Made by a program: the position numbers and the translations under genes
In this document: in pieces, positions 21,068 through 48,781 of the stretch
Layout: every line of letters begins with the position of its first letter
How positions within the stretch are numbered: the first letter of the stretch is position 1
The notes under the pieces: generated by a model
What the model saw: only the letters and a program-made list of their open reading frames with translations
What the model was told of the DNA's origin: nothing
Databases searched by the model: none
NCBI GenBank assembly: GCA_964354655.1
Contig: CAYHAL010000003.1
Location: forward strand, 3,670-67,669
DNA length: 64,000 bases
From: an uncultured Dehalococcoidales bacterium
GTDB taxonomy: Bacteria > Chloroflexota > Dehalococcoidia > Dehalococcoidales > E44-bin46
Reading direction: 5' to 3'

Positions 21068-21071
21068 TGAC

Positions 21072-23427: not shown

Positions 23428-23446
23428 TAGTGAGTTAAGCAACCTT

Positions 23447-27800: not shown

Positions 27801-27812
27801 TTGTTGGGTGGC

Positions 27813-28565: not shown

Positions 28566-28586
28566 AGCCCCCTCCTTTATCTCACT

Positions 28587-29390
28587 TTAACTCATTTTGC
28601 TTCTTACATACCGAACATATTGAAGACAGTGGGCATCAATCCCTAATAGAGCTTCTGAGGCTCGCAGGATGTTTTTCATTTCTTCATCCTTGGGATTAAT
28701 AACAGCCATATCCAATCCTGCCTCAAGAAGCATGGCTAAAAAGGCTTGGTTGAGCAGGGTGCGGCTGGGTAATCCAAAGGAGACATTGGATAACCCTGTT
28801 GTTGTCTTCACCCCTCGGCTCCCATAGCACCTCTTGATCTCCCGTATGGTATTGATGACAACACGGGCTTGGTCTGGATTACTCCCGATGGACATCACTA
28901 AAGGGTCTATGAACAACCGCTGCAGACTTACTCCGGCTTCTTCTAGAGTATTAATTAGCTGTTCGACTTCCTGAAGGCGCTCCTCCACGGTGTTAGGCAT
29001 CCCCGTCTTTCCCCCCATGGTCAGACCGATAATATCGGCATCGTACCCTTTAACAATGGGGATGAGCCCCTGTTGTAGTCTAGGGTCATTATTGATGGAG
29101 TTGATAACAGGGCGGGCTCGACAAAGCTTTAGTCCTGCTGCCATAGCCTCAGGTTTAGGGGTGTCGATGGCTAGGCGTACCTCTCCCACCTCATCATAAA
29201 TAAGCCCAATCACCCACTTCATGTCATCAATCTCCTGCTCCATGCTGGTAGCAGTATTAATATCAAGAATGTCAGCCCCAGCCTCTACCTGCTCTCGGGC
29301 AAGACGCCGGATAGTAGCTTCATCCTTGGCTTGAAGAGCCTCCTTGACCGCTTTTCGCGTCGAGTTCAATAATTCTCCAATAATTAACAC
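28587..29390 (-). CDS. Pterin-binding methyltetrahydrofolate:corrinoid methyltransferase (MeTr/MtgA/AcsE-like)
   Basis: 267 aa of DHPS-like pterin-binding barrel: IIGELLNSTRK, GADILDINT and TTGLSNVSFGLP. Confidence 0.75.
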   Translation of the reverse strand: MLIIGELLNSTRKAVKEALQAKDEATIRRLAREQVEAGADILDINTATSMEQEIDDMKWVIGLIYDEVGEVRLAIDTPKPEAMAAGLKLCRARPVINSINNDPRLQQGLIPIVKGYDADIIGLTMGGKTGMPNTVEERLQEVEQLINTLEEAGVSLQRLFIDPLVMSIGSNPDQARVVINTIREIKRCYGSRGVKTTTGLSNVSFGLPSRTLLNQAFLAMLLEAGLDMAVINPKDEEMKNILRASEALLGIDAHCLQYVRYVRSKMS

Positions 29391-29461
29391 TTCGTCCCTC
29401 CTTTAATCGGTATCGGCTATTTTACTCTCTCTCCGTTTTCCTATTCCTCGTCCTCATTATC

Positions 29462-29824
29462 TTAATCCTTAGCCCCCACCTCTCGTGTCTTTCCCCCCAA
29501 ATTGTCTAAATAGGCAATCCGGCGACGCTTAAAAACTGTTGCCGAATATTTTTCAATCTTCCATTTAGGAATTCCACATTTCTCGCATGTCCTAGAAAAC
29601 CATTTATTACGAAGCCATCGGGCAGCACGACTATTTCTAGAATCGTGTATCACCATCTGTTTATTACAATGAGTAACCACATAAGCATAAGAATCACTGG
29701 TAATTTCAAAGGTTTTGATTCCATGGAGAACTCCCCGCCGGGAAGGCCATAGTTTTATCTTTTCTACCAATTTAAAAAGGGGGACTCGTCTCCAATAGAT
29801 TTTTTTTCGTGTCTTACCCGACAA
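29462..29824 (-). CDS. pylSn: Pyrrolysyl-tRNA synthetase N-terminal tRNA-binding protein (bacterial split form)
   Basis: 120 aa with a TTG start behind GGGGGAGAGAG. Segments KLWPSRRGVLHGIK..., NSRNSRAARWLRNKWFSRTCEKCG resemble the PylRS N-domain (zinc-binding, basic). It lies immediately downstream of pylT. Confidence 0.8.
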   Translation of the reverse strand: MSGKTRKKIYWRRVPLFKLVEKIKLWPSRRGVLHGIKTFEITSDSYAYVVTHCNKQMVIHDSRNSRAARWLRNKWFSRTCEKCGIPKWKIEKYSATVFKRRRIAYLDNLGGKTREVGAKD

Positions 29825-29853
29825 CTCTCTCCCCCATTATTTTGATCAAATTG

Positions 29854-29925
29854 TGGCGGGGGGTCCGAGAGTTACACTCGGCTACACAAATTTAGAGTCT
29901 GTGTGATCTTTCCGATTAACCCCCC
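29854..29925 (-). tRNA. pylT: tRNA-Pyl (anticodon CUA), CCA encoded
   Basis: The minus-strand sequence is GGGGGGT-T-AATC-GGAAA-GATC-A-CACAGA-CTCTAAA-TTTGTG-TAG-CCGAG-TGTAACT-CTCGG-ACCCCCC-G-CCA. It has a 7-bp acceptor, one nucleotide between acceptor and D stem, a 5-nt D loop without GG, a 6-bp anticodon stem, a 3-nt variable loop and a non-canonical T loop. These are the published hallmarks of tRNA-Pyl. Confidence 0.9.
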
Positions 29926-29940
29926 GTTTTTACCATGCCT

Positions 29941-30771
29941 TCACTGAACACAACTGGCATGAACAAACATGGTAGCCACACCAATCTCCAGCACATCATG
30001 AATCAAACGCTCTTTGACCAAGAAATAAGCCTCTTCACTTAATCCCAGCGGTATCCCGGGAGCAGCAATAAAAGTTTCTGGCTTGATATGTCTTGCCTGT
30101 ATAATATTAGCCGAAGGTGAAGCATCAAAAAATACTGTATATCGCCTAAGTGCCTCTTCTAGATTCCTTTCCACTGTAATTTCATGCCCTTTAACCAGTG
30201 ACTCCATTCTATCTTGATTAGGGTCAAAAGCTGCTACCTTCGCTCCCTTCTTTTTAAGAGATAAAACTGCATTCCAGCCCACCCGACCTGCTCCCCCAAT
30301 CACTAACACCTGGCGCTGGCTTAAATCTCCTGCCATGGCTTCTAATGCCGAAACATATCCTTTTGCTGTTGCCTCTACATTATCAATAATCCTCCTTAAG
30401 GGAAAGTTCAGGGCAATAAACCGGTTATCATCAGCCAAAAAAACAATGTCTGCGCCTTTCTCAATCCCTTCCGCCAGTCCAGCTATATCGCTATCCCTTG
30501 TTTTAAAAGCATTAACTCCAATGTGAATCAAAATTCCTTCAACCGCCTCAACAAAGTTTTCAATAACTCCTTGTCCCGAGGTTATGGGAACCACAGCTAC
30601 CGTATGGGAACCGATGGCAGCTCTTACCTTTTCTTCGCTGTCTTCTATAGAGCGACTGGCAATCTCTTTGAGTGACAAACCTGTTTTTCGAACTAACTCA
30701 GCCTCATAGGCAGGAAGTTTCTGTATTATATCCATTATATCTTCTTTTTTCAGGCGCGTCACCTCATTCAC
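29941..30771 (-). CDS. pylD: Pyrrolysine synthase (NAD-dependent dehydrogenase)
   Basis: 276 aa with the Rossmann motif VLVIGGAGRVGWNA. It is adjacent to pylT/pylSn and completes the pylBCD set. Confidence 0.85.
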   Translation of the reverse strand: MNEVTRLKKEDIMDIIQKLPAYEAELVRKTGLSLKEIASRSIEDSEEKVRAAIGSHTVAVVPITSGQGVIENFVEAVEGILIHIGVNAFKTRDSDIAGLAEGIEKGADIVFLADDNRFIALNFPLRRIIDNVEATAKGYVSALEAMAGDLSQRQVLVIGGAGRVGWNAVLSLKKKGAKVAAFDPNQDRMESLVKGHEITVERNLEEALRRYTVFFDASPSANIIQARHIKPETFIAAPGIPLGLSEEAYFLVKERLIHDVLEIGVATMFVHASCVQ

Positions 30772-30966
30772 CCTCTGGACGATGAAAATATACCAGCAAG
30801 ACCCACCCCTTCAGACTGGCTTTGGAAGCAGTGGGTCTTCCAAGGTAACTCTATCTTGAAACTTGCATCCCTTTCTTGGCTATCGAAAATTCTAACATAC
30901 CCCGCTCGCTCCTTGTCAAGCGCAGTAGCTTTCCCCCCTGATTCAACTCCTAGCTTTCTGAAGAGT

Positions 30967-30997
30967 TTGACAAAATCGATTCTAACGGTGTTATAAT
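30967..30997 (+). promoter_or_regulatory. Candidate promoter for mttB-mttC (extended -10)
   Basis: TTGACA (30967-30972), then TGTTATAAT ending at 30997. The spacer is 19 nt, which is long, so confidence is low. Confidence 0.3.
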
Positions 30998-31205
30998 GAA
31001 GCCAAACTGGTTAGTATTCCCTTCCTTTATAAGCCTGGTGCTGCGCTAGCACTGGGGAAATTTATAGCATAATCGGTCTTGCTGACGCTAGTGTAAAGGC
31101 AAAAGAGTGGATCCCAAAATGGTGAAAGGAGGTGAGAAATTAGGGTTAGGATTAATTTAGTTTCAAAATAGTGAGGTTAAAAAAATTAAAGGAAGGAGGG
31201 GAAAA

Positions 31206-32678
31206 ATGATTAGAGGAACGAGAGCCTCATATACACAACTTTCAGGCTGTGGTCTCAATATGTTTACCGATGATGAATTAGCTGAGCTGCATAGAGCCAC
31301 ACTGGATGTTCTAGAAGATGGCGGCATCATGGTGCTCAATGATGAAGCGCAGGAGATTTTCTACTCCCACGGCTGTAAAGTCGATAAGAAAACTAACATC
31401 GTCAAGATACCCCCTTACCTCGTCAATGAGGCAATAAATTCAGCTCCATCAAAGGTACTGCTTGCCGGTCGAAATCCCAAGTATGACATCGTCTTGGAAG
31501 GCACCAGGGTGGCAAACACCACCTTTGGTGTAGGCATAAAGGTGCTTGATTTAGACACGGGCAAACACAGAAACTCGACAAACAAAGATCTGGCTGAATC
31601 CGCAATATTAGCCGATGCTATTGAGGGAGTAGATGTTTTTACCCAGTCAGTGGTCCCCAGAGATGCACCTAGTCAGGTGGAAGACCTTATTGCTGCCGAG
31701 ACATGTCTTAGCAATTGTAGCAAACACTTCCACCATGTTGATATATTGTCTACCGAGAGTGTCAGAAGGTATTTTGACATGGGTGCTGCCATAGCCGGAA
31801 GCGCTGAGGAGATGAGGCGGCGACCGGTTTGTTCTATTCTAATCTGCCCGGTCAGCCCGTTGCAGCTTAGTCCTGAAGCCTGCGAGGTTATTATTGAATC
31901 GGCAAGGTTAGGCATACCCTGTAACATTTTGTCAATGGCGCTATCTGGGGGTACTGCCCCAGTCACCAATGCAGGAACACTGATAGTCCATAATGCCGAG
32001 GTGCTGGGGGGCATAACTTTAAGCCAGCTTACTAAGAAGGGAGCACCGGTAATCTATGGCAGCTCCACCACCATGTTCGATCTAGCCCTGGCCATCGCAC
32101 CGGTGGGAGCACCGGAAATGGGCATGATAAGCGCAGCGGTAGCCAAGCTTGGCCAGTATTACAACCTGCCGACTTATGTCTCCGGGACCTAGGCAGATTC
32201 TAAGGTACCTGATGCGCAGGCAGCTCACGAAAAAACGATAACAAATCTGCTGCCGGCCATCGCTGGGGCTAATCTGATTTATGGCATGGGTATGTTAGAA
32301 TCAGGACAGACTTGGAGTCATGAGCAACTGGTAATTGATAACGACATTGTAACTATGGTTAAACGGGTGATTCAGGGGATCGACGTTACCGATGATACAA
32401 TGGCCGTTGACATCGTAAAGCAGGCTCATAAGATAAAAGACTTCTTACATCAGAAACACACCATTCAGTTTATGAGAAGTCAATCAAGACCAAAATTGAT
32501 TGACCGCACTACCCGGGGAACTTGGGAGGCTAAGGGAGGCAAAGATTTAACCCAGAGGGCAAAAGAAGAAGCACGCAGGATCATAAAGACCCATCAACCT
32601 GAGCCTTTAAGCGATGATGTAAAGAAGACGCTACGCGAAATTGTTGACAGTGCTAGAAAAGAACTTGTACCTGATTGA
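31206..32678 (+). CDS. mttB: Trimethylamine:corrinoid methyltransferase with an in-frame UAG (pyrrolysine) codon at 32190-32192
   Basis: Track ORFs 31206..32192 and 32286..32678 share one frame. The only interruption is the TAG in ...YVSGT-TAG-ADSKVPDAQAAHEKT.... The joined product of about 490 aa has an MttB-family sequence (LNDEAQEI, ANLIYGMGMLESG). Confidence 0.9.
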
Positions 32679-32715
32679 TAACTTTCTAATAACCAGAAGA
32701 AAGGAGAGCACTACT

Positions 32716-33366
32716 GTGGCAAAAGCACAAGAGATATTAGCAGCGGCAAAAAAAGCCATTATTGACTACGATGTGGTTAAGGCTGAGGAGGTTGCCAGGG
32801 AGGCTTTGGCTAGTGGTGTTGATCCGGTGGCACTGATAGAAAAGGGGTTTACTGCTGGAATAGCTGAGGTTGGTGACCGTTTTGATAAGGGGGAGGCATA
32901 CTTGCCAGAATTAATATTGGCGGCTGATGCCATGAAAGCAGGAACAGCAGTATGTGAGGCGGCACTCCCTAAAGGAACAATTAAGGAAAAGAAGAAGGTA
33001 GTAATAGGGACGGTGGAAGGAGATATTCACGACATCGGGAAGTCAATTGTTGCTTCCTTTTTAGCCGCCAACGGATTTGAGGTTCACGACATCGGTAGAG
33101 ATGCTCCTGCTGAGAAATTTGTGGAAACAGCTCGTGAGGTAAAAGCAGATGTGGTTGGGGCTAGCGCTCTATTGACAACAACTATGGAGCAGCAGAAGAA
33201 GATAGTGGAAGCGCTGAAAGAAGCCGGGCTGCGAGATAAAGTTAAAATAATTGTCGGTGGAGCACCAACCAGCCAGGAATGGGCTGAACAGATCGGAGCC
33301 GATGCCTATGCTGAAAATGCTGCGGAGGCAGTAGCTAAGGTAAAGCAATTAACCGGTTTGCAATAA
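32716..33366 (+). CDS. mttC: Trimethylamine-specific corrinoid protein (B12-binding)
   Basis: GTG at 32716 behind AAGGAGAG. The GDIHDIGK motif is present. It is highly similar to 21267..21920. The track start at 32641 overlaps mttB and is unlikely. Confidence 0.85.
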   Translation: MAKAQEILAAAKKAIIDYDVVKAEEVAREALASGVDPVALIEKGFTAGIAEVGDRFDKGEAYLPELILAADAMKAGTAVCEAALPKGTIKEKKKVVIGTVEGDIHDIGKSIVASFLAANGFEVHDIGRDAPAEKFVETAREVKADVVGASALLTTTMEQQKKIVEALKEAGLRDKVKIIVGGAPTSQEWAEQIGADAYAENAAEAVAKVKQLTGLQ

Positions 33367-37893: not shown

Positions 37894-38000
37894 AAACCTC
37901 CTCCAGCCAAAGATAAACGGGAATTTTTATAGGAGAAAAGGCAATTTTATTGAATTAACCTAACATAGCTGCCCAAGGTTGTCAAGTTCTTTTGATTTTC

Positions 38001-38046
38001 GGCGGTGGCATAGCGGGGATAACTTCAGCATTAGAATTAGCCAATA
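38001..38046 (+). repeat. 46-bp perfect duplicate of the 5' coding end of the HdrA-like gene (FAD-binding GGGIAGITSALELAN segment); the second copy is at 38583..38628
   Basis: GGCGGTGGCATAGCGGGGATAACTTCAGCATTAGAATTAGCCAATA occurs identically at both positions in the same orientation. The upstream copy sits in a short dead-end ORF (...VLLIFGGGIAGITSALELANIGNSWLLLGIRGKQE*, stop at 38091). Confidence 0.9.
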
Positions 38047-38552
38047 TAGGAAATTCTTGGTTGCTTTTGGGAATTCGAGGTAAACAGGAATGATATTAGC
38101 GAACGTGGTTCTGCACAGGTGTCCAATGTGTCTAAGGGTGTGCGTCTTAACAGCTCCGAACCAGGCCCACATCAGATGCATACTCGAGTCAGGGTGTCTT
38201 GACAGATCGCGTAGTAAAGCTCTGATATCGGAGACCAGTTGAGTTCTATCAGCCATCAAAGAATAGAAGCTCAACACCCGGGCTTACCCTTGCACTTGCA
38301 AACTTATAGTGATAGGACGGTGGTAGCAAACAAACCGATGTTTTGCTGGCAAGAAAGTGATATAATAGCCCTCTGGGAGACAAGACTTTTGACTCTGAAG
38401 CATTCATCTATTTCCGGCCTAAAATGTCACCATTTTGCTGATTACATACAGAGTAATACTGAGAAGATGGCTGATTTAACAGAACCCGGTGTTTCGCAAA
38501 GGTCTCTCACCCCTAGCGATATTACCATCAAATATGATAGTATCTATAGAAT

Positions 38553-39806
38553 ATGAAAGCAGATAGGTCTATTGTAGTTATTGGCGGTGGCATAGCGGGG
38601 ATAACTTCAGCATTAGAATTAGCCAATAGTGGTTTCACAGTATACTTAATAGAGAAGGAGGCACGAATTGGAGGGCAAGCAGCCTCCTTCTGTTGCAAAG
38701 CCACGGAAGTTTGCTCTAAATGCTCCGCCTGCCTCCTCCCTCAAAGGATTAGTGAGATAGCAAGTTATCCCCAAATCTCAATCCTGACTAATTCAACGGT
38801 GGTGGGGGTAAATGGCGAACTGGGCAACTTTCAGGTGGAGGTTTGCCAAAAGCCCCAATATATCTCCCCTAAAAAATGCATCGCCTGTGGAATGTGCATC
38901 GGGGTTTGCCCCACCACGCCTAAGGCAATCCAGTCCCCTCCCCCCGAGGCAGTTCCTTATTCCTATTCCATTAGTGAATCCCAGTGCCTCTACCTCAAAA
39001 GGGAGGAGTGCAACCTCTGCCGGGAAATATGCCCCACCAACGCTATAATCTTTGGGCAAAAACCCGAAAGGCAAAAACTGAATAATGTGGGGGCAATCAT
39101 TGTGGCCACCGGCTTTGACGTCTTTAATGCTCGAGAACTTGGCTGCCTGGGTTATGGCAGATACCCTAATGTTTTAACTGGTTTTGACCTGGAGAAGATT
39201 TTCAGAAATCAGGGCTCTCTTAAGCTTCCCTCAAATGCAAAGGAACCGAAGAAGGTCGCCTTTATCCAATGTGTCGGCTCAAGGGACGAAAATCATGGCT
39301 ATTGCTCCCAAGTATGCTGCAAATATGCCATGAGACTGGCTCGACTTATCACATATCAAAATCCTGATGCTGAAGTTACTATCTTTTACATTGATCTTCA
39401 AACCGCGGGAAAGGGCTTTGCCCAGTTTTATAAGGAATATCAGGAAAGTATCCGATTTATCCGGGGCGTGCCAATCGAAATCTCAGAGGCTCCCTCTGAT
39501 GAAGTTGAGGTGAAATTTGAGAATATTGCAGAAGGAAGGGTTGAGCGAGAAAACTTTGACCTTGTAACTCTTTCAGTAGGTATCGCCCCCAGAAAAGACT
39601 CTTGGGAGCTGGCCAAAGTTTTGGGAATAAATCTAGAAGATGATGGCTTCTTCGACATCAAGGGGCCGCTCAATACCACAGAAACCAACGTTGACGGGGT
39701 CTTCCTTGCCGGAGCTTGTCAGAGTCCCAAGGATATCCCTGATTCAATCGCTCACGGAATCTCGGCAGCAGAAAGAGCGATGGAGGTTTTACAGAGATGC
39801 AAGTAA
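38553..39806 (+). CDS. HdrA-like FAD-dependent oxidoreductase with an inserted 2x[4Fe-4S] ferredoxin domain (short form)
   Basis: 417 aa with the FAD motif VIGGGIAGITSALELANSG, the clusters CIACGMCIGVCP and CNLCREICP, and the HdrA-typical IQCVGSRDENHGYCSQVCC. Confidence 0.75.
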   Translation: MKADRSIVVIGGGIAGITSALELANSGFTVYLIEKEARIGGQAASFCCKATEVCSKCSACLLPQRISEIASYPQISILTNSTVVGVNGELGNFQVEVCQKPQYISPKKCIACGMCIGVCPTTPKAIQSPPPEAVPYSYSISESQCLYLKREECNLCREICPTNAIIFGQKPERQKLNNVGAIIVATGFDVFNARELGCLGYGRYPNVLTGFDLEKIFRNQGSLKLPSNAKEPKKVAFIQCVGSRDENHGYCSQVCCKYAMRLARLITYQNPDAEVTIFYIDLQTAGKGFAQFYKEYQESIRFIRGVPIEISEAPSDEVEVKFENIAEGRVERENFDLVTLSVGIAPRKDSWELAKVLGINLEDDGFFDIKGPLNTTETNVDGVFLAGACQSPKDIPDSIAHGISAAERAMEVLQRCK

Positions 39807-41428
39807 AGATGGGCGTTTTTCTCTGCGACTGTGGGGGGAGTTTAAAGAACATAGATTTCCCTAAAGTTAGGGAGAATTTAGAGGACCTTGAAGACGTCGC
39901 CTTTGTAGACATAAGCCATAATCTGTGCCTTGAAGAAGGGGAAAAAGCGATAACTTCAAGGACCCTGACTGAGAACATCGATAGAGTGGTAATCGCTGCT
40001 TGCTCACCAGAGTTCTGTGAGCGTAATTTTGCCAGGCTTCTAGAAAAGCTTAGGCTTAACCCCAATCTTCTTTCCCTGGCAAATATCAGAGAGCAATGTT
40101 CATGGGCTCATGAAGGAGATGTCACTAGGAAGGCGCTGGAACTGATAATGATGGCCGTGGATAAAGCTCGGCTGCTTCAGCCAGTGGAGAGAAAGGAAGT
40201 TGCGGTAAACAAAGAGGTCCTAGTGGTAGGTGGAGGATTCTGCGGGATGAAATCCTCTCTTGAGCTTTCCCAGCTTGGGATTAGGACTACTCTAGTGGAA
40301 AGAGAGCCGACCTTGGGGGGAAAGCTTAAGGAGCTTGAAGGATTTTATGGCTCCCAAAGAGAGGCGATGATAAAAGCAGTAGAAAAAGAGGAAAACATTG
40401 AGATTCTCACCTCTGCTGAAGTGATAGGGGTAGAAGGGAAGATAGGGGATTTCAGGGTAAGGATAAGGAGGGAGACAAAGGAAATCTTGCGAACTTTTGG
40501 AGCCATAGTTTTCGCCACTGGGTATAAAACCGAGATCACTGCTGGGGACTTCCCGCTTAAGCCGGGCATTAACATCATTTCGCAAAAGAGACTGGCCCAG
40601 ATGCTTCAAACTCCAACTCTAGAAGCAAGCCCCGAAACCATAGGTTTTATATTTGACCTCTCCGACGAGAACTCTCGTTTCCCAACACTGGCCACCTTAA
40701 ATAATGCCTTAGCAGTTAAACAGAGGTGGGGCAGCGAAGTTTATGTCTTCTGCAAGAACGTCAAAGTGGATAGCGAAGGAGTGGAAAAACTGTACCGGGA
40801 GGCAAGAGAGAAGGGAGTGATGTTCTTAAAGTTTGACAAGAATCCCAAGATTTCAGCAGATGACAGCCGAGTGAGAATCGATGCGGGAGATACTCTACTC
40901 GGGGAAGAGATAGCACTAACCTGCGACCTTGTGGTTGCCGAGGAGAAATTGTTGCCTGCCGAAGGTACTGAAGGTTTAAGCTCCGTGCTAAAGATAAGAA
41001 CCGACTCCCAGGGTTTTTACCAGGAGGAAAATGTGCACCTTTATCCTGTTTCCTCAGAGAGGAAAGGGATATTCTTTGTTGGAAATTGTCGAGGGGATTT
41101 AGACCTTGGCCGAGTGTTAGCAGATATTTCCAGCGTTGTTGCCATAGTCCACGAACTGTTATCTCTGGGGAAGATTATGGTGGAGGTAGAGCGGGTTAAG
41201 GCAGATCCCCAAAAGTGTGTGGCATGCCTCACTTGCATCCGTGCCTGCCCGCACCGTGCCGTCCAACTGGTTCACATAGATAGCGAGAAAGTGGCGGCTG
41301 AAATTTCCCAGCTTGCCTGTGATAAATGCGGTATTTGCGCTGCTATTTGCCCGGCCAAGGCTATAAAATTTGAGGGCTATAGTGATGACCAAATCTTGGC
41401 TCAAATTGAAGCAATAGGGGTATCATGA
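39797..41428 (+). CDS. HdrA-like flavoprotein, second unit (N-terminal CxCGG domain, FAD domain, C-terminal 2x[4Fe-4S])
   Basis: 543 aa with GVFLCDCGGSL, REQCSWAH and VVGGGFCGMKSSLELSQLG. The C-terminal clusters are CVACLTCIRACP and CDKCGICAAICP. The internal CVGSRD...CC cysteines are replaced by FDLSDENSRF. It overlaps the upstream gene by 10 nt. Confidence 0.7.
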   Translation: MQVKMGVFLCDCGGSLKNIDFPKVRENLEDLEDVAFVDISHNLCLEEGEKAITSRTLTENIDRVVIAACSPEFCERNFARLLEKLRLNPNLLSLANIREQCSWAHEGDVTRKALELIMMAVDKARLLQPVERKEVAVNKEVLVVGGGFCGMKSSLELSQLGIRTTLVEREPTLGGKLKELEGFYGSQREAMIKAVEKEENIEILTSAEVIGVEGKIGDFRVRIRRETKEILRTFGAIVFATGYKTEITAGDFPLKPGINIISQKRLAQMLQTPTLEASPETIGFIFDLSDENSRFPTLATLNNALAVKQRWGSEVYVFCKNVKVDSEGVEKLYREAREKGVMFLKFDKNPKISADDSRVRIDAGDTLLGEEIALTCDLVVAEEKLLPAEGTEGLSSVLKIRTDSQGFYQEENVHLYPVSSERKGIFFVGNCRGDLDLGRVLADISSVVAIVHELLSLGKIMVEVERVKADPQKCVACLTCIRACPHRAVQLVHIDSEKVAAEISQLACDKCGICAAICPAKAIKFEGYSDDQILAQIEAIGVS

Positions 41429-41811
41429 ACGGGGAAATTATAGCTTTCTGTTGTGAACATTCCGCCTATGCTGCTGCTGATGCGGCGGGGAAGCAAGGAC
41501 TTCACTACCCAGAAAACCTGCGAGTTATCCGGGTTCCCTGTGCTGGGAGGGTGGATATAATCCATATGCTGAAGGCCTTAGAGGAAGGCGCTGCAGCGGT
41601 ACTAGTGCTCGGCTGTGAAGATGGACTTTGCCAACATCTAACCGGAAATGTAAGGGCAAAGGAGAGGGTAAAATATTCCGAGACGCTATTGAAAGAGGTC
41701 GGGATAGATGGCGGGCGTGTGGAAATGTTCAACCTTGCCGCCAATGCCCCTCATAAGTTCATCAAGATAATAAATGAAATGAATGAAAGAATAAAGGAGC
41801 GGGAGAGGTAA
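41425..41811 (+). CDS. mvhD: MvhD-like [2Fe-2S] electron-transfer protein
   Basis: 128 aa with IIAFCCEHSAY...IRVPCAGRVD...GCEDGLCQH, typical of the FlpD/MvhD family. Confidence 0.8.
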   Translation: MNGEIIAFCCEHSAYAAADAAGKQGLHYPENLRVIRVPCAGRVDIIHMLKALEEGAAAVLVLGCEDGLCQHLTGNVRAKERVKYSETLLKEVGIDGGRVEMFNLAANAPHKFIKIINEMNERIKERER

Positions 41812-41812
41812 A

Positions 41813-42472
41813 ATGATAATCGCTGAAAGAAAACCTATGGAAGAAATCCTCCAGATGATAGCCCCCTATAAGAAGGTACTTCTGGCCGGTTGTGGGACAT
41901 GTGTTGCCATCTGCTGGACGGGAGGAGAAAAGGAGGTCGGAATACTGGCTTCACAACTTCGGCTTGCCCGAGGTAAGGAGGGGGACAAGACCAATACTGT
42001 TGAAGCTACGGTTGAGAGGCAGTGTGAAAAGGAGATGGTAGAAGAGCTTAGAGACAAAGCCGAGGGAGTTGAAGCAGTTCTTTCTCTAGCCTGTGGGGCT
42101 GGGATACAAACCCTGGCTGAGGTATTTGAGGACAAGCCAGTTTTTCCAGCCGTGAATACCACCTTCCTCGGCAGTCCTGAAGGAGAGGGGGTGTGGCTGG
42201 AGAATTGTGGCGCCTGCGGGGATTGCTTCCTTGACCGAACCGGGGGTATCTGCCCCATGGTTCGCTGCGCCAAAGGGATTCTCAACGGTCCCTGTGGGGG
42301 CACAAGGAAGGGAGGGAAGTGTGAGATAGACCCAGATAAAGACTGTGGTTGGGTTCTCATCTACCGTAGGCTGGAGAAACAGGGAAGGCTTGACCTAATG
42401 CGGAAATATTATCCACCGAAAAACTTCCGGGCGGTGAAGAGACCGGGCAAGATGAAGGCGATAAAAGCTTAG
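41813..42472 (+). CDS. metV: Methylene-THF reductase accessory zinc-ribbon/FeS subunit
   Basis: 219 aa with CPMVRCAKGILNGPCGGTRKGGKCEIDPDKDCGW (MTHFR_C-like). It lies directly upstream of metF and ends in TAG. Confidence 0.8.
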   Translation: MIIAERKPMEEILQMIAPYKKVLLAGCGTCVAICWTGGEKEVGILASQLRLARGKEGDKTNTVEATVERQCEKEMVEELRDKAEGVEAVLSLACGAGIQTLAEVFEDKPVFPAVNTTFLGSPEGEGVWLENCGACGDCFLDRTGGICPMVRCAKGILNGPCGGTRKGGKCEIDPDKDCGWVLIYRRLEKQGRLDLMRKYYPPKNFRAVKRPGKMKAIKA

Positions 42473-42482
42473 GAGGCGAAGG

Positions 42483-43376
42483 ATGGCAAGGGATTTTAGA
42501 GAAACACTCAAAACAAAAGACTTTGTCGTAACTGCTGAGGCAGCTCCGACCAAAGGCTCTAGTGTAGAGAGGTCGCTGGAGCATATCGAGCTTCTCAAGG
42601 ATAAGGTAGATGCTCTCAATGTGACTGACAACCAGAGCTCGGTAATGCGCTATCCCTCTGTAGGCATCTGCCTTTTAATCAAAGAACACGGCGGGGAGGC
42701 AGTGCTTCAGGTCACCTGCCGGGACCGAAATCGCCTGGCAATTCAAGCGGATCTCCTCTTCGCCTGGTCTCGAGGGGTACGCAACGTCCTCTGTCTTACC
42801 GGTGATTCTATAGACGTTGGCGACCATAAGGAAGCAAAACCGGTCTTTGATCTCGAATCAGTGCAGCTTATCCACCTTGTCCATGCCTTGAACTCGGGCA
42901 AGGACATGGCGGGTAACGAGCTCAACGGAGGCACTGACTTCTGTATTGGGACTACTGCCACCCCTTCAGCCGACCCCATCGAGCCCCAGCTGGTTAAAGT
43001 GCAGAAGAAGCTGGAAGCCGGGGTAGACTTCATTCAAACACAGGCAGTTTACGACCTTGACGAGCTTAAGAGATTTGTGGAATTTGTGCGCAAACACGAC
43101 CAAAAGGTCAAAGTCCTATTGGGAATAGTGCCTGTTATTGGAGCAAAGATGGCACAATATATGAATGAGAACGTTCCCGGCATTTTTGTCCCTCAATATA
43201 TTATTGACGAACTGGCCCAAGCTCCGAAAGGCACAGGCATTAATAAAGGAATAGAGATAGCCGCCAGGTTAATAAGGAAAGCTAAGGAAGACAAACTATG
43301 CGATGGAACCCATATCATGTTCATTGGGAAAGAGGAGAGGGTTCCTGAGATTCTGGAAGCTGCCGGACTACTGTAA
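42483..43376 (+). CDS. metF: 5,10-methylenetetrahydrofolate reductase
   Basis: 297-aa MTHFR TIM-barrel sequence (VTAEAAPTKG, LQVTCRDRNR, LCLTGD, QTQAVYD). Confidence 0.85.
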   Translation: MARDFRETLKTKDFVVTAEAAPTKGSSVERSLEHIELLKDKVDALNVTDNQSSVMRYPSVGICLLIKEHGGEAVLQVTCRDRNRLAIQADLLFAWSRGVRNVLCLTGDSIDVGDHKEAKPVFDLESVQLIHLVHALNSGKDMAGNELNGGTDFCIGTTATPSADPIEPQLVKVQKKLEAGVDFIQTQAVYDLDELKRFVEFVRKHDQKVKVLLGIVPVIGAKMAQYMNENVPGIFVPQYIIDELAQAPKGTGINKGIEIAARLIRKAKEDKLCDGTHIMFIGKEERVPEILEAAGLL

Positions 43377-43399
43377 AAGAGTTAGCAAGGAGGGGAAAG

Positions 43400-43879
43400 A
43401 TGACCATAGTACTGAATGAACTAGATACCAAATTCAAATATGATATTGCTGCTGAACCGGGAGGGGAAAATATTAAGCTCTGCTTTGCTTGCGGGCTATG
43501 CACTGCTAGTTGCCCCGTTGCTGATATCGACCCTGAATTTAATCCACGGAGGATAATCCGCATGGTGCTTTTGGGGATGAGAAAGGAGGTTCTCTCCTCT
43601 TACGTTCCTTGGCTTTGCATCCAGTGTCATACCTGTCAGGCGCACTGCCCCCAGAATGTTAATTTCGCCGACCTGATGAAACCGCTAAGGAATATGGCAG
43701 TAAGGGAAGGGTATATCCACCCTTCCTTCGCCAAGAAGATAAAGGAGATTGATGCCTTCTCTCAGCGGCTGCGCAACCAAATGGTACGATCCATTGTAGA
43801 CAAGAAATCCGAGGAAACAAAAGTAGATGTGGCAAGACTTGCTGAGGAGACGCTGGGAAAAGAGAAGGCGAAGATTTAA
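43400..43879 (+). CDS. HdrC-like 2x[4Fe-4S] ferredoxin
   Basis: 159 aa with CFACGLCTASCP and CIQCHTCQAHCP, spaced as in HdrC/4Fe-4S dicluster proteins. Confidence 0.6.
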   Translation: MTIVLNELDTKFKYDIAAEPGGENIKLCFACGLCTASCPVADIDPEFNPRRIIRMVLLGMRKEVLSSYVPWLCIQCHTCQAHCPQNVNFADLMKPLRNMAVREGYIHPSFAKKIKEIDAFSQRLRNQMVRSIVDKKSEETKVDVARLAEETLGKEKAKI

Positions 43880-43893
43880 ATAAGGATTTAAAG

Positions 43894-46800
43894 ATGGCAG
43901 AATGTGTAGAGAGGTCTAAAGATAAGCATGTAGGAGCAGTGATGGTAGTGGGGGGAGGAATTGGTGGAATTCAAGCCTCACTTGACCTAGCTGAGTCTGG
44001 GTACAAGGTCTATTTGGTGGAGAAAACTCCAGCTATAGGTGGGGTTATGGCTCAGCTGGATAAGACCTTCCCCACTTTAGACTGTTCCATGTGTATACTC
44101 TCTCCAAAACTGATTGAATGTGGAAGACACCCTAATATTGAGCTACTTACCTGTTCAGAGCTTCTAGAGGTTGACGGAGAGCCAGGAAATTTCACCGCTA
44201 AGGTTTTACGGCATCCGAGATTTGTCGATATTAGTAAGTGCACTGGGTGTGGAGAGTGTGCTCCAGTTTGCCCCATAGCATGTGCCAGTGAATTTGAAGG
44301 GGGCTTGATAGAAAGAAAAGCGATATTTAGACCATTTGCTCAAGCCTATCCCAATGCTTTCGCTATCGATAAGAGACAGAGGGCCCCGTGTGTGTTGACT
44401 TGCCCTGCGGGGACCAACGTTCAGGGATATGTAGCTTTATGTGCCGAGGGCAAGTATGAAGAGGCACTCTCAGTAATAAAGGAAAAACTCCCTATCCCCA
44501 GGGTACTAGGAAGAATCTGCCCTGCCCCCTGTGAAGAGAAATGCAATCGCCGACTTTTAGAAGAGCCTCTTGCTATTCGAGCGATAAAGAGGTTCGTCGC
44601 TGATACCGCCAAAGGTAAGGCTTCATTGCCTGAAATAAAGGAGAAAGAGGAAAAGGTAGCCATCATTGGCTCAGGGCCAGCAGGACTTAGCTGTGCCTAC
44701 TGGCTGCGACTTGAGGGATATAAGGTTACCATATTTGAGGCGCTCCCTGTAACTGGAGGGATGCTTCATGTTGGCATTCCTGGATACCGTTTGCCCAAGG
44801 ACGTCGTTGAGGAAGAGATAAAAGAGATCGAAGCCTTAGGAGTGGAGATAAAGACCAACACTCCTATCGGCAAGCAGCTAACCCTCGATGACCTGCTACA
44901 GCAGGGATATAAAGCTGTGTTTATCGGTGTAGGAGCCCACCGAAGTCAGCAACTTGGTGTTCCCGGGGAGGATGCCACGGGAGTAATTCATGGTGTCGAT
45001 CTGCTCAGGGATATTAATCTAGGGAAAGAGGTGAAGACCAAAGGAAAGGTGGTGGTAATAGGTGGCGGAGATGTTGCTATAGATTCAGCCCGCTCCGCTC
45101 TCCGCTCACGCGCCGATGAAGTTAGCATTCTTTATCGCAGAACAAGGGTGGAAATGCCTGCCAGAGAGGAGGAGGTGCAGGCAGCCGAAACTGAGGGGAT
45201 AAAAATAGAATTTTTGGTAGCCCCTGTAGAAATTCTAACCAAAAATGGGAAGGTTAGTGGAATAAGGTGTATTCGCATGGAACTTGGTGAGCCAGATGCC
45301 AGCGGAAGAAGGCGCCCCATTCCTATCAGGGACTCCGAGTTCGATTTGAAGGTCGACGTGGTGATTCCAGCAATTGGGCAGGCCCCTGACCTATCGCCAT
45401 TAGAAAGTAGCGGGATAAATATTACCAGACGAGGCACCATTGAAGTTGACGCGGTAACCTTGGAAACATCCCGAAAAGGAATCTTTGCTGGCGGGGATTG
45501 CCAGACTGGCCCCTCCATTGCTGTTGAGGCTGTAGCCGCCGGTGCCCGGGCAGCAGAATCAATTATCAGATACCTGAACCATCAGGATATTAAAGAAGGA
45601 AGGCTACCTCCCCAAAGGGAGCCCTCCGATGTCACTTTTATTCCTTTGGGTCAAGCCAGAGAGCCGAGACAGAAGATGCCTACTATCCCTATAGAAGAAA
45701 GAACTTCTGGGTTTAAAGAGATAGAACTCGGCTTCCCTGAGGAACTGGCAACCAGGGAGGCGAGTCGCTGCCTGGCTTGTGGAATCTGCTCTGAGTGCAT
45801 GCAGTGTGTTGCCGCTTGTAAAGCCAATGCTATCGTTCACTCTATGAAGGAAGAGGTTACAGAATTAAAAGTGGGCTCGGTAATCCTCAGCCCTGGCTTT
45901 GATGAATTTGACCCACGTCCTCTCTTCCACTACGGATACAGGAGGTACCCCAACGTGGTAACCAGCATAGAATTTGAAAGGATGCTCTCAGCTTCAGGAC
46001 CATACCAGGGTAAGCTGGTAAGACCCTCGGATAGGAAACCACCTCAAAGAATCGCCTGGATTCAATGTGTTGGCTCTAGGGATGAAAGTTTGAATCGTGG
46101 ATATTGCTCTTCTGTCTGTTGCACTTACGCTATCAAAGAAGCTATTATCGCCAAAGAGCATACTCCCTTTGAATTGGAAGAAACTATCTTCTACATGGAT
46201 ATAAGAACTCATGGGAAGGATTTTGATAAGTTCTATGAACGGGGAAAGGCAGCAGGGATAGAGTTTATAAGAGCGAAGGTGTATGGAGTTGAGGAGGTAG
46301 ATGGCACAGGGAACTTGCTCCTCAAGTATCTTAGCGAGGATGACAAGCCGAGCACCCGTGAGTTTGATCTAGTTGCCCTGTCGGTAGGACTTGAGCCTTC
46401 CCCAGCAAGTGTTACTCTGGCAAAGAGACTTGGCATCCAAGTTAATAAATATGGATTTTGCCACACCAATGTCTTCTCCCCGTTGGAAACTTCTAGGCCC
46501 GGAATCTACGTCTGTGGGGCCTTTCAAGGCCCAAAGGACATCCCTGAGACAGTGATGCAGGCAAGTGGAGCAGCCGGAAGCGCATCTGCTTTGCTTGCTC
46601 CAGCACGAAATACCCTTATCACCAAAAAGGAATACCCACCGGAGAAAGATGTCACCGAGGAAGAGCCCAGAGTTGGTGTGTTTATCTGCCACTGTGGCAT
46701 CAATATCGGGGGATATGTGGACGTACCTCGAGTTACTGAATATGCGAAGACCCTTCCCAATGTAGTTTATGCCGAAAATAACCTCTACACTTGCTCTCAG

Positions 46801-48351
46801 GACACCCAGGAGAGAATAAAGGCTACCATCAAGGAACACAGTCTAAACCGTGTTATAGTTGCTTCATGCACGCCAAGAACCCATGAGCCCTTGTTCCAAG
46901 AAACTATGAGAGAAGCAGGCTTGAACAAATACCTCTTTGAAATGGCCAACATCCGTGACCAGTGCTCTTGGGTTCATATGCATGAGCCGGAGAAAGCCAC
47001 TGAGAAAGCGAAGGATTTGATTAGCATGGCAGTGGCAAAGGCAAGGCTTAAGGAGCCACTAAAGCCTCTGCTTATCCCAGTTAATCACTCCGCTTTGGTC
47101 ATCGGGGGAGGAGTGGCCGGGATGGTGAGCGGTTTAAACTTAGCGGAGCAGGGTTTCAAAGTCCATCTTATCGAAAGGACTGGCGACCTCGGTGGAATAG
47201 CGAGGAGGATGCACTATACCCTCGGTAGTGATGGCGTTCAAACCTTCCTTGCTGATTTGATTAATAGGGTTAAAGAACACCCTAACATTAAGGTCTACTG
47301 CGATACCGGGATTGTAGACGCCTACGGATATGTAGGGAACTTCACCACCGAGATAATGAGATATCCAGGTATGACCATAGAGAAGATAGACCACGGCGTC
47401 ACTATCATCGCTTGTGGGGCTGAGGAGTATAAACCGGAGGAATACTTCTACGGCAGGTACCCCAGGGTGCTCACTCAGCTCGAGCTTGAGGAGAAGATAG
47501 TCAAGGGAGAACCAGACATCATCAACTGCGACAACTTGGTTATGATCCAGTGTGTAGGCTGCCGAAATGATGAGCGACCCTATTGTGGCCGCGTATGCTG
47601 CAATGAGGCAATCAACAATGCCCTCAAGCTTAAAGAGGCAAAGCCCGATATGAATATCTATGTCTTCTATCGAGATATGAGGACCTATGGATTCTATGAG
47701 GACTACTATCACGAGGCAAGACGAAAAGGGGTTATATTCCTGTGCTACGACCCAGAAAATAAACCTAAAGTGAGCCAAGTGAGAAAGGATTCACGGTATC
47801 TAATAAGGGTTGAGGGTAAAGACCCAGTCATTGGGGAGAAAGTAGCTATTGATGCCGATATCGTTACCCTATCTGTGTCCATGATTCCTACGGAAGAAGC
47901 AAGAGAACTAGCAAAGTTCTACAAAGTGCCCTTAAACGAAGATGGCTTCTTCCTGGAAGCACATGTAAAGCTTCGGCCAGTGGACTTTGCCACAGATGGG
48001 GTCTTCATCTGTGGGCTTGCCCATGCTCCAAAGTCAATCGAGGAGATAATTGCGCAGGCTAGTGCTGCTGCTTCTCGGGCCACCACAGTATTGTCCAAGG
48101 AAACTATCATGGCTGAGGGCATCGTCGCCTCAGTAAACGAGGATATTTGCTCAGGTTGTGGCACCTGCGAAACGGTATGTCCTTACGGTGCTATTGCTGT
48201 GAATAAGCAAAAGGGAGTGGCTGAGGTTAACGAAACTTTGTGTAAGGGCTGTGGCACCTGCTGCGCTGCTTGTCCTTCAGGGGCTGCCCAACAGAGAGGC
48301 TTCACCACAAGGCAAATCTCAGCCATGGTGAGAGCTAGTTTGGGGGTTTGA
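43894..48351 (+). CDS. Giant HdrA-like / NAD(P)H-oxidoreductase (GltD/NfnB-like) / HdrA-like fusion flavoprotein (HdrL-like)
   Basis: 1485 aa. The N-terminus is an HdrA FAD domain (VVGGGIGGIQASLDLAESG, CSMC, CTGCGECAPVCP). Residues ~165-590 are GltD-like (CPAGTNVQGY..., CPAPCEEKC, VAIIGSGPAGLSCAYWL, VVVIGGGDVAIDSA). An HdrA core follows (CLACGICSECMQC, IQCVGSRDESLNRGYCSSVCC). A second complete HdrA unit comes next (GVFICHCGINIGG, RDQCSWVH, VIGGGVAGMVSGLNLAEQG, IQCVGCRNDERPYCGRVCC). The protein ends in 2x[4Fe-4S]. Confidence 0.75.
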   Translation: MAECVERSKDKHVGAVMVVGGGIGGIQASLDLAESGYKVYLVEKTPAIGGVMAQLDKTFPTLDCSMCILSPKLIECGRHPNIELLTCSELLEVDGEPGNFTAKVLRHPRFVDISKCTGCGECAPVCPIACASEFEGGLIERKAIFRPFAQAYPNAFAIDKRQRAPCVLTCPAGTNVQGYVALCAEGKYEEALSVIKEKLPIPRVLGRICPAPCEEKCNRRLLEEPLAIRAIKRFVADTAKGKASLPEIKEKEEKVAIIGSGPAGLSCAYWLRLEGYKVTIFEALPVTGGMLHVGIPGYRLPKDVVEEEIKEIEALGVEIKTNTPIGKQLTLDDLLQQGYKAVFIGVGAHRSQQLGVPGEDATGVIHGVDLLRDINLGKEVKTKGKVVVIGGGDVAIDSARSALRSRADEVSILYRRTRVEMPAREEEVQAAETEGIKIEFLVAPVEILTKNGKVSGIRCIRMELGEPDASGRRRPIPIRDSEFDLKVDVVIPAIGQAPDLSPLESSGINITRRGTIEVDAVTLETSRKGIFAGGDCQTGPSIAVEAVAAGARAAESIIRYLNHQDIKEGRLPPQREPSDVTFIPLGQAREPRQKMPTIPIEERTSGFKEIELGFPEELATREASRCLACGICSECMQCVAACKANAIVHSMKEEVTELKVGSVILSPGFDEFDPRPLFHYGYRRYPNVVTSIEFERMLSASGPYQGKLVRPSDRKPPQRIAWIQCVGSRDESLNRGYCSSVCCTYAIKEAIIAKEHTPFELEETIFYMDIRTHGKDFDKFYERGKAAGIEFIRAKVYGVEEVDGTGNLLLKYLSEDDKPSTREFDLVALSVGLEPSPASVTLAKRLGIQVNKYGFCHTNVFSPLETSRPGIYVCGAFQGPKDIPETVMQASGAAGSASALLAPARNTLITKKEYPPEKDVTEEEPRVGVFICHCGINIGGYVDVPRVTEYAKTLPNVVYAENNLYTCSQDTQERIKATIKEHSLNRVIVASCTPRTHEPLFQETMREAGLNKYLFEMANIRDQCSWVHMHEPEKATEKAKDLISMAVAKARLKEPLKPLLIPVNHSALVIGGGVAGMVSGLNLAEQGFKVHLIERTGDLGGIARRMHYTLGSDGVQTFLADLINRVKEHPNIKVYCDTGIVDAYGYVGNFTTEIMRYPGMTIEKIDHGVTIIACGAEEYKPEEYFYGRYPRVLTQLELEEKIVKGEPDIINCDNLVMIQCVGCRNDERPYCGRVCCNEAINNALKLKEAKPDMNIYVFYRDMRTYGFYEDYYHEARRKGVIFLCYDPENKPKVSQVRKDSRYLIRVEGKDPVIGEKVAIDADIVTLSVSMIPTEEARELAKFYKVPLNEDGFFLEAHVKLRPVDFATDGVFICGLAHAPKSIEEIIAQASAAASRATTVLSKETIMAEGIVASVNEDICSGCGTCETVCPYGAIAVNKQKGVAEVNETLCKGCGTCCAACPSGAAQQRGFTTRQISAMVRASLGV

Positions 48352-48352
48352 A

Positions 48353-48781
48353 ATGGCTGAAAAAAAGAATTTTGAGCCAAAAATAATAGGATTTTGTTGC
48401 AACTGGTGCTCCTATGCTGGTGCTGACCTTGCCGGTGTTTCACGGCTTCAATATCCCCCCAATTTAAGGATGATAAGAGTGATGTGTTCTGGGTCAGTAA
48501 ATCCAGAGCACATCCTTGAATCCTTTCGCCAAGGCGCTGACGGAGTATTTATAGGAGGGTGTCACCCCGGAGATTGTCACTACATATCGGGAAACTATAA
48601 GATGCGGAGGAGGGTTTCGCTCTTAAAGAAGCTTCTGTCACAGTTTGGGCTGGAACCTGAAAGACTGAGACTTGATTGGGTCTCCGCCGCGGAGGGACAG
48701 AGGTTTGCCCAGATAATGACTGATTTTACCGAAGAAATTAAGAAATTAGGGCCGATTACCGCTACCTCCCTACCATGCTGA
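48353..48781 (+). CDS. mvhD: MvhD-like [2Fe-2S] electron-transfer protein (second copy)
   Basis: 142 aa with IIGFCCNWCSYAGADLAG...IRVMCSGSV...GCHPGDCHY. Confidence 0.8.
   Translation: MAEKKNFEPKIIGFCCNWCSYAGADLAGVSRLQYPPNLRMIRVMCSGSVNPEHILESFRQGADGVFIGGCHPGDCHYISGNYKMRRRVSLLKKLLSQFGLEPERLRLDWVSAAEGQRFAQIMTDFTEEIKKLGPITATSLPC

Follow-up and report, generated by a model that had tools for sequence, protein, structure and literature searches.

In the acetogen Moorella thermoacetica, the type IV methylene-tetrahydrofolate reductase (MTHFR) is the complex MetFV-HdrABC-MvhD (Kremp 2022, PMC9430772; Buckel & Thauer 2018, PMC5861303). Enzymes of this type are characterised by a physical complex with NADH:benzyl viologen and benzyl viologen:methylene-tetrahydrofolate activities. 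The HdrA encoded in its hdrCBA-mvhD-metVF cluster has 1487 aa (162.8 kDa) and a GltD insert; residues 922-1487 are a canonical HdrA without the inserted ferredoxin domain, and the signature residues are E696/K750 and E1204/K1246 (Kremp 2022, PMC9430772). In the MvhADG-HdrABC complex of methanogens, HdrC wires the HdrA flavin to HdrB, the high-potential acceptor site, and the inserted ferredoxin domain serves ferredoxin. The C-terminal HdrA modules of acetogens are without this domain, which is named as the ferredoxin-binding site in methanogen HdrA (Kremp 2022, PMC9430772). What HdrB does in Hdr-type MTHFRs, and which second electron partner they use, have been questions of acetogen bioenergetics since 2014, and a natural variant offers a comparative test. 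Here we analyze such a variant, encoded in a 64-kb stretch from an uncultured Dehalococcoidales bacterium (contig CAYHAL010000003.1, positions 3,670 to 67,669; this whole stretch is called the window, and positions are counted from its first nucleotide). Eight plus-strand genes at 38553-48781 encode HdrA1, HdrA2, MvhD1, MetV, MetF, a short HdrC, a large HdrA/GltD fusion (HdrL) and MvhD2. On balance, these genes probably make up one operon for an Hdr-type (Moorella-type) MetVF MTHFR, in a derived form that would be specific to a Dehalococcoidia-type clade.

The components of this system are already known, as are the enzyme type, the fusions of HdrA with NfnB/GltD, and MetVF-HdrA-MvhD clusters without an adjacent hdrB. 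In the literature, where subscription journals were mostly outside our coverage, we found no description of the eight-gene form with its split duplicate HdrA, the steady absence of HdrB from it and the MvhGA genes that are often linked to it. The variant is widespread, as its hallmark subunit HdrA2 is represented in metagenomes by more than 120 clusters of proteins (clustered at 90% identity) that are at least 62% identical to it, some of them fused to MvhD.

The metVF gene cluster and its relatives

The genes of the cluster, in order, are:

38553..39806, plus strand: HdrA1, 417 aa, HdrA-like flavoprotein module of the thioredoxin reductase (TrxR) type with an intact inserted two-cluster ferredoxin domain
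39797..41428, plus strand: HdrA2, 543 aa, paralogous to the C-terminal module of HdrL
41425..41811, plus strand: MvhD1, 128 aa, MvhD/FlpD-type [2Fe-2S] protein (PF02662, E 2.7e-43, full length)
41813..42472, plus strand: MetV, 219 aa, small Fe-S subunit of a MetVF-type MTHFR (PF12225, E 3.1e-35)
42483..43376, plus strand: MetF, 297 aa, catalytic flavin subunit of MTHFR (PF02219, E 5e-38)
43400..43879, plus strand: HdrC-like, 159 aa, short 2x[4Fe-4S] protein with no HdrB partner
43894..48351, plus strand: large HdrA (HdrL, Moorella-type), 1485 aa, HdrA/GltD fusion
48353..48781, plus strand: MvhD2, 142 aa, MvhD/FlpD-type [2Fe-2S] protein (PF02662, E 2.4e-60), 1 nt past the large HdrA

An earlier note on this DNA, made from the letters and the open reading frames (ORFs), had given the same eight ORFs, and their coordinates and lengths were confirmed exactly. 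It had also described the genes as tightly packed, with overlaps and gaps of 1-20 nt. The junctions in gene order are -10, -4, +1, +10, +23, +14 and +1 nt, so that the overlaps and short gaps are borne out and the range is exceeded by one gap of 23 nt; metV and metF are 10 nt apart. Its placement of MetVF within a set of HdrA-, MvhD- and HdrC-like genes agrees with the domain annotation by Pfam and NCBIfam. In MetF, PF02219 spans residues 5-295 of the protein and positions 2-287 of the 287-position model, and the MTHFRs in the PDB are distant matches only; no solved homolog of MetV was found in the PDB. All three flavoproteins, two of them small and one large, are matched by HdrA models of NCBIfam. 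The best family of the HdrC-like protein is TIGR03290 (HdrC; E 3e-24), which is covered at model positions 1-88 of 144 only and scores 85.6 against a cut-off of 160. This protein has two CxxCxxCxxxC motifs, and its top PDB matches are HdrC chains (8RVV_C, E 1e-21); the match to 5ODC_C is confined to residues 29-111, the ferredoxin core. Scans for promoters and terminators gave counts at or below the expectation from shuffled sequence, and thus did not mark the boundaries of the operon.

A comparative survey of gene order, which the earlier note had named as a check, was run on 90 loci, using Pfam-annotated neighbourhoods together with ORF and BLAST searches. The order HdrA1-HdrA2-MvhD-MetV-MetF-HdrC-HdrL-MvhD was found in seven other complete loci (L002, L003/L007, L004, L006, L012, L090 and L092/L093), and three further loci carry it in part (L008, L017 and L091). 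Because the same set recurs in the same order, the gene set is far beyond chance. The complete loci with a named host are from Dehalococcoidia or Dehalococcoidales. Most genes of the variant loci are joined by junctions of 0-15 nt or by overlaps, and in L006 and L090 MvhD1 is fused to HdrA2, giving a seven-gene form. Across the variant loci, HdrL identity runs from 60-63% upward, while MetV is 68-81% and MetF 76-83% identical; MetF is 64% identical to the MetF of an HdrB-containing Dehalococcoidia locus (L015). This clade-wide conservation had not been mentioned in the earlier note, and neither had the paralogy of genes 1-3 nor the MvhG/MvhA genes downstream in relatives, both of which are taken up below.

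Homologs of HdrL with a length of ~1480-1490 aa number in the thousands, and full-length homologs were placed in 80 genome loci. They come from Dehalococcoidales, Thermodesulfobacteriota (Smithella, Syntrophales, Desulfobacterales), Acidobacteriota, Planctomycetota, Asgard archaea and others. The closest, at 78-90% identity, are from metagenome-assembled genomes (MAGs) of uncultured Dehalococcoidales, which makes this order the most probable origin of the window; those in Thermodesulfobacteriota MAGs are at 49-61%. In a quick neighbour-joining tree of 77 HdrL proteins, computed with no support values, all variant loci fall in one clade and the loci with both MetVF and HdrB are on deeper branches. 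The latter have the Moorella order HdrC-HdrB-HdrL-MvhD-MetV-MetF, which is widespread at 49-59% HdrL identity; its hosts include Dehalococcoidia A509, another Dehalococcoidales MAG, Poribacteria, Spirochaetes, Planctomycetaceae and Acidobacteria. In Smithella and Syntrophales, the arrangement is HdrL-MvhD-HdrC-HdrB and MetVF is absent from it.

HdrB, the HdrA proteins and the route of electrons

HdrB was searched for in two ways. Pfam was run on the ~50 ORFs of the window, and a hidden Markov model (HMM) of HdrB was built from 25 CCG proteins encoded beside HdrL homologs, three of which were checked and are two-domain PF02754 proteins. No CCG/HdrB domain (PF02754) was identified in the ~50 window ORFs, and the HMM had no match at E<=10 in the six-frame translation of the whole 64 kb; the same HMM scores 346-475 bits in the 25 other loci. 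For six of the complete variant loci Pfam tables exist, and these show no PF02754 domain within ±10 kb; nothing was detected by the HMM in any of the seven complete or the partial variant loci. Where HdrB is present among the HdrL loci, an HdrC-like gene lies on the same strand less than 300 bp away in 24 of the 25 cases, the exception being at a contig edge. In all 11 variant loci, complete and partial, there is an HdrC without HdrB. Since HdrB is so regularly paired with HdrC, yet the variant keeps HdrC alone, the absence of hdrB looks like a real loss from the module. The HdrC of the variant has 155-169 aa, versus mostly 175-200 aa in the HdrB-containing loci; as a clean mark of HdrB loss this length was rejected, being a trend only, with ranges that overlap at 162 and 170 aa. 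The claim of the earlier note that HdrB is lacking is therefore upheld by Pfam and the HMM for the cluster and the window. It applies to the locus and not demonstrably to the genome, because Acetothermia encode hdrBC elsewhere (Colman 2022, PMC9586279).

The large HdrA consists of two TrxR-like flavin modules in tandem, the first of which holds the GltD insert. Its parts were mapped on the HdrA sequence of PDB 5ODC, as recovered from HMMER alignments:

43894-44379 and 45784-46608, plus strand: HdrL N-module (aa 1-162 and 631-905)
44380-45783, plus strand: GltD/NfnB-like insert (aa 163-630), which sits inside the inserted ferredoxin domain of the N-module
46660-48348, plus strand: HdrL C-module (aa 923-1485), without an inserted ferredoxin domain

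The NCBIfam HdrA2 model matches HdrL in four stretches (1000 bits), and 5ODC_A is likewise aligned in four stretches. Residues 157-660 score above the cut-off for GltD/NfnB-type families (PRK12771, 554 vs 516 bits). From end to end, the insert can be aligned with NfnB subunits of known structure (4YLF_B, E 8e-94, residues 45-460 of 468; 5JCA_L, E 3e-89), with the Cys ligands, the GxGxxG/GxGxxA motifs and the YRRT..EMPA motif kept. The GltD-like NAD(P)H/FAD/[4Fe-4S] domain that the earlier note had seen in the large protein is thus intact. The note had gone on to set this domain against the HdrB-containing Moorella complex, and that contrast does not hold, as the 1487-aa Moorella HdrA has the same insert (Kremp 2022, PMC9430772). 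For the same reason, the GltD module is ruled out as a replacement for HdrB: it is common to the known Moorella enzyme and therefore no stand-in for the missing subunit. The landmarks of HdrL (E695/K748, C-module start at 923, E1199, length 1485) make it nearly colinear with Moorella HdrA, when compared with the published numbering of that protein and not with its sequence.

In the N-module, the equivalents of E356 and K409, the signature of bifurcation, are E and K, all Cys ligands checked are present, and the E/K signature is complete in six of the six clade sequences compared. The C-module has E at the E356 equivalent and Asn at the K409 equivalent (residue 1241, nt 47614-47616). Within the clade the K409 position is Lys in four of six members, Ala in L002 and Asn in the window, and the signature of the C-module is therefore variable.

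Genes 1-3 repeat the plan of genes 7-8. HdrA1 covers positions 137-562 of the HdrA2 model and residues 146-563 of 5ODC_A (E 3e-93). By BLAST, its aa 17-144 align with aa 26-162 of HdrL (36% identity) and its aa 152-399 with aa 634-887 (42%), so that the GltD insert is skipped exactly. The HdrA2 protein aligns end-to-end with aa 926-1481 of HdrL (29%, E 3e-71), and MvhD1 and MvhD2 are 38% identical. From these alignments within the cluster, the large HdrA and MvhD2 have a GltD-less paralog that is split over HdrA1, HdrA2 and MvhD1. HdrA1 has kept the E356 equivalent, along with the two four-Cys motifs in its inserted ferredoxin domain, and has Arg (Lys in one relative) as the K409 equivalent. 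A lookup of the exact HdrA1 protein returned no record. HdrA2 has lost the equivalents of E356 and K409 as well as four of the five conserved Cys residues checked (386/399/403/404), and retains GxGxxG. The fifth, C197, is absent from HdrA2 and also from the C-module of HdrL.

Taken together, the gene content suggests as the likeliest product a reversible MTHFR that is linked to NAD(P)H and probably coupled to ferredoxin, and in which MetFV serves as the high-potential site. NAD(P)H would enter at the GltD/NfnB-like insert of the large HdrA and, in relatives, H2 might enter as well through MvhAG and MvhD. Electrons would pass to the HdrA flavin bearing the bifurcation signature. The high-potential branch would run from HdrC through MetV to the MetF flavin and on to methylene-tetrahydrofolate (methylene-THF, CH2-THF; E0' -200 mV), with MetFV taking the place of the HdrB/heterodisulfide of methanogens; HdrB would, on this proposal, therefore be dispensable. 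MetF/MetV is the only high-potential site in the cluster, and metV-metF lies directly upstream of hdrC. The low-potential branch would exit, most plausibly to ferredoxin (Fd), via HdrA1, whose inserted ferredoxin domain is intact and, alone among the modules here, free. The overall reaction would be 2 NAD(P)H + Fd_ox + CH2-THF <-> 2 NAD(P)+ + Fd_red + CH3-THF, near equilibrium. The reverse would therefore be possible, namely methyl-THF oxidation aided by reduced ferredoxin in a methylamine-using organism. By the quoted potentials, oxidation of methyl-THF with NAD+ alone is uphill (Kremp 2022, PMC9430772).

This full scheme, an HdrB-free Hdr-MetFV enzyme with MetFV as exergonic site, input from NAD(P)H or (in relatives) H2, and the ferredoxin domain of HdrA1 as endergonic exit, is offered tentatively, as a possible if rather doubtful reading. 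Several points weigh against the proposed MTHFR and its mechanism in general. The full E/K signature is found in one of the four flavin modules, and HdrA2 looks degenerate. The sequence does not tell NADH from NADPH as the donor. Neither a second electron partner nor a role for HdrB has been assigned even in the enzymes of Moorella and Sporomusa, and Sporomusa ovata MetVF, purified without Hdr proteins, used ferredoxin alone (Kremp 2022, PMC9430772). The methylamine island that lies upstream in the window is not conserved beside the cluster, and relatives have regulators, Wood-Ljungdahl or hydrogenase genes in its place. Finally, an hdrB gene may sit elsewhere in the genome, the inspected DNA being the 64-kb window and ±10 kb in the relatives.

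This last point also speaks for an ordinary Moorella-type MetFV-HdrABC-MvhD enzyme whose HdrB is supplied in trans from elsewhere in the genome, the locus being only a rearranged operon. There is a precedent in type I Acetothermia, which co-localise metVF-hdrA-mvhD and have hdrBC and mvhAG elsewhere (Colman 2022, PMC9586279). We nevertheless consider such an arrangement unlikely here. A gene for HdrB that had merely moved would be expected to fit poorly with HdrC standing alone in 11 of 11 variant loci when HdrB adjoins it in 24 of 25 cases; moreover, HdrC of the variant is a short protein that matches solved HdrC in the ferredoxin core only, and the extra HdrA/MvhD set gained by the clade suggests a changed architecture.

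The S. ovata result bears on another explanation, that two separate enzymes are co-transcribed. In that case MetVF alone would be a ferredoxin-dependent (type II) MTHFR, as the purified protein reduced methylene-THF with ferredoxin (Kremp 2022, PMC9430772), and the Hdr-like proteins would supply or remove reduced ferredoxin as an independent NAD(P)H (or H2):ferredoxin oxidoreductase. HdrL, MvhD and a short HdrC do occur without MetVF in the Thermodesulfobacteriota-type loci L005 and L009, and in Nfn the NfnB-like domain is a bifurcating unit by itself. However, the genes are interleaved in the order HdrA2-MvhD1-MetV-MetF-HdrC-HdrL, with junctions of 1-4 nt or overlaps, and this order is kept across 63-100% identity. 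In pull-downs from S. ovata, MetVF interacts physically with HdrA and MvhD (Kremp 2022, PMC9430772), and no NfnA-like partner is present here, Pfam having detected no FNR-like FAD/[2Fe-2S] domain in the window ORFs scanned. The gene context argues for partners of MetVF, and we regard two independent enzymes as distinctly unlikely. Least of all do we expect a non-bifurcating NAD(P)H-dependent MTHFR, a very unlikely reading in which the large HdrA would be input and wire, like RnfC2 of the type III enzyme of A. woodii, and the extra HdrAs would be structural or regulatory. It would account for the three of four flavin modules without a full E/K signature and for the lost cluster ligands of HdrA2, and non-bifurcating HdrA homologs exist (Kremp 2022, PMC9430772). 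The strict conservation of E/K in the N-module speaks against it, as do the hydrogenase genes adjoining the cluster in relatives, and ~2600 residues of Fe-S flavoprotein with two MvhD proteins would be an improbable outlay for a simple hydride relay.

If the ferredoxin-coupled, HdrB-free scheme is true, ferredoxin would be the long-sought second partner of the Hdr-type MTHFRs, the enzyme would be shown to do without HdrB, and Dehalococcoidia that use methylamine would be equipped with a methyl-THF dehydrogenase that is reversible and confurcating. This bears on the direction that the Wood-Ljungdahl pathway takes in uncultured sediment Dehalococcoidia, for example in oxidising the methyl groups of methylamines.

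Flanking genes and other loci

Upstream of the operon, the window has two features:

17837..33366, upstream of the operon: pyrrolysine/methylamine island (from Pfam, TAG positions and Rfam)
37989..38216, plus strand: degenerate HdrA1-like pseudogene fragment, ~580 bp before hdrA1

The island encodes pylS-like, pylB, pylC and pylD genes, the methyltransferases MtbB, MtmB and MttB, two corrinoid proteins, a RACo/RamA-like activase and a pterin-binding methyltransferase. In-frame TAG codons are found in MtbB (codon 358), MtmB (codon 203) and MttB (codon 329). Rfam scored PYLIS_3 with 93 bits and PYLIS_2 with 64.8 bits; PYLIS_1 reached 43.8 bits, short of its cut-off of 70. With pylS-like, pylB, pylC and pylD, the pyrrolysine system is apparently complete; pylT was not found in the window by ARAGORN or Rfam. 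Pyl systems in Chloroflexi have already been reported (Mukai 2017). Despite pyrrolysine decoding in the three methyltransferases, 11 of 50 predicted genes end with TAG as a normal stop codon; metV is one of them (42470-42472), and read-through there would add only eight codons.

The pterin-binding methyltransferase would give a route to methyl-THF. The earlier proposal that the operon serves the oxidation of methylamine-derived methyl-THF stands in so far as the island is real, lies upstream and encodes this methyltransferase; the link to methyl-THF oxidation is plausible and specific to this genome, as the adjacency does not recur in relatives. Judged from the gene orders compared, the position of the island next to the operon is a lineage-specific rearrangement and not a conserved functional linkage.

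The pseudogene fragment looks like a scar of rearrangement at the 5' boundary. It aligns with aa 7-83 of HdrA1 at 34% identity, with stops within (tblastn), and holds a 46-nt exact direct repeat, 38001-38046 being identical to nt 31-76 of hdrA1 (38583-38628; blastn, 100%). A Logan contig starts inside the repeat, and an assembly chimera at this point was considered. It is less likely, since there are two copies, both separated by unique sequence, and in each copy the Logan unitigs of several runs end or start precisely 30 nt in, as k=31 predicts. Because of these breaks, we take the repeat as real and the order in the window as the sole consistent path. The regulators usual upstream in relatives, where a cNMP-sensor kinase and response regulators precede the cluster in most cases, are missing in the window, which likewise suggests that the 5' boundary was rearranged.

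On the downstream side, L002 carries fhs, RACo, folD, cdhD and a gene for CODH. Genes for the small and large subunits of a NiFe hydrogenase (MvhG/MvhA-like) directly follow MvhD2 in L003 (14869-16639), L006 (14877-17317) and L092/L093 (L092, 19012-21488). The presence of MvhGA beside MvhD2 in these three relatives suggests an H2-linked version of the same complex. In the window, MvhD2 is followed instead by a FabF-like gene on the opposite strand, and Pfam detected no MvhA/MvhG hydrogenase genes among the ORFs scanned.

Several other arrangements were observed in the course of the survey. A second MetF paralog of 307 aa, absent from the window, is encoded near the cluster in L003 (1582-2505), L004 (1565-2488), L012 (991-1914) and L092 (from 21511 onward); its identity, measured in L003, L004 and L012, is 36-38%, and in L003 and L004 it adjoins a formate-dehydrogenase-like molybdopterin protein. 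In Thermodesulfobacteriota-type loci, namely L005 (10001-22875) and also L009, L010 and L073, HdrL-MvhD occurs with a short HdrC that shares 53-57% identity with that of the window, and there is no HdrB and no MetVF. Loci of this type also carry proteins of 1015 aa and 254 aa without a Pfam match and a GltD-like protein, and are flanked by aldehyde:ferredoxin oxidoreductase genes; here the electron module seems to serve some other catalytic partner. In Acidobacteriota (L032, L037, L042 and others), HdrL-MvhD is preceded by an HdrC-like protein of ~390 aa. The one checked with Pfam, from L037, has a ferredoxin core only and no CCG domain, and these loci may be another HdrB-less form.

In L008, the large HdrA is without an MvhD of its own directly downstream. 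Beside the cluster, a convergent operon on the minus strand (5916-14206) encodes NuoF-like and NuoG-like (Fer2_4) proteins, a protein like the HdrA C-module, MvhD, MvhG, MvhA and NifU. By its domains it is predicted to be a NuoF/HdrA-linked NiFe hydrogenase. An assignment as the split HdrA pair with a hydrogenase was ruled out, as Pfam shows a single HdrA.

Comparison with known systems

The large protein of the window fits the HdrL type, a fusion of HdrA with a GltD-like NAD(P)H domain followed by mvhD. The name HdrL comes from Desulfobacterium autotrophicum HRM2, where it was given to a 'heterodisulfide reductase/glutamate synthase fusion' that mvhD always follows (Strittmatter 2009, PMC2702500). 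The HdrL loci of that type are linked to dsr, fdh, AOR or hdrCB and not to metVF, and some of the proteins are selenoproteins, of which there are none here. The nearest solved homologs of HdrA, HdrC and MvhD are those of the methanogen MvhADG-HdrABC complex (PDB 5ODC, 8RVU). Unlike that complex, the window has no HdrB/heterodisulfide site and no hydrogenase genes; it has MetFV and duplicated HdrA modules, one with an NfnB-like insert. A similar insert is found in the HdrA-NfnB fusions of ANME-1, in which an NfnB-like domain of ~500 aa interrupts the inserted ferredoxin domain at the same insertion point as in HdrL (Chadwick 2022, PMC9012536). The ANME-1 fusions differ in being archaeal, in having a single-module HdrA and in not sharing one operon with metVF. 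Of the NfnAB transhydrogenase, the NfnB-like subunit, with its 2x[4Fe-4S], FAD and NADPH site, is present in the window as a domain of HdrL only.

Nearer to the window in gene content are the systems that contain MetVF. The type I Acetothermia, compared by description only, have MetVF with HdrA and MvhD and no hdrB in the cluster, as in the window (Colman 2022, PMC9586279). However, their hdrBC and mvhAG are located elsewhere, and neither a second HdrA set nor an in-cluster hdrC has been described. The 942-aa HdrA of S. ovata has an extra TrxR-like module with E/K and an HdrA module without E/K, and no GltD (Kremp 2022, PMC9430772). By this description, not by alignment, it has the layout of HdrA1 plus HdrA2. 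The window departs from the S. ovata HdrCBA-MvhD-MetVF system in that this layout is split into two genes, HdrA1 has a ferredoxin domain, a Moorella-type HdrA is encoded alongside, and HdrB is absent. With the Moorella complex itself, the window has in common MetV, MetF, MvhD, HdrC and a GltD-bearing HdrA of ~1486 aa. The order is metV-metF-hdrC-hdrA-mvhD in the window versus hdrC-hdrB-hdrA-mvhD-metV-metF in Moorella, and the window differs further in having no HdrB, a shorter HdrC, an extra split GltD-less HdrA pair and a second MvhD.

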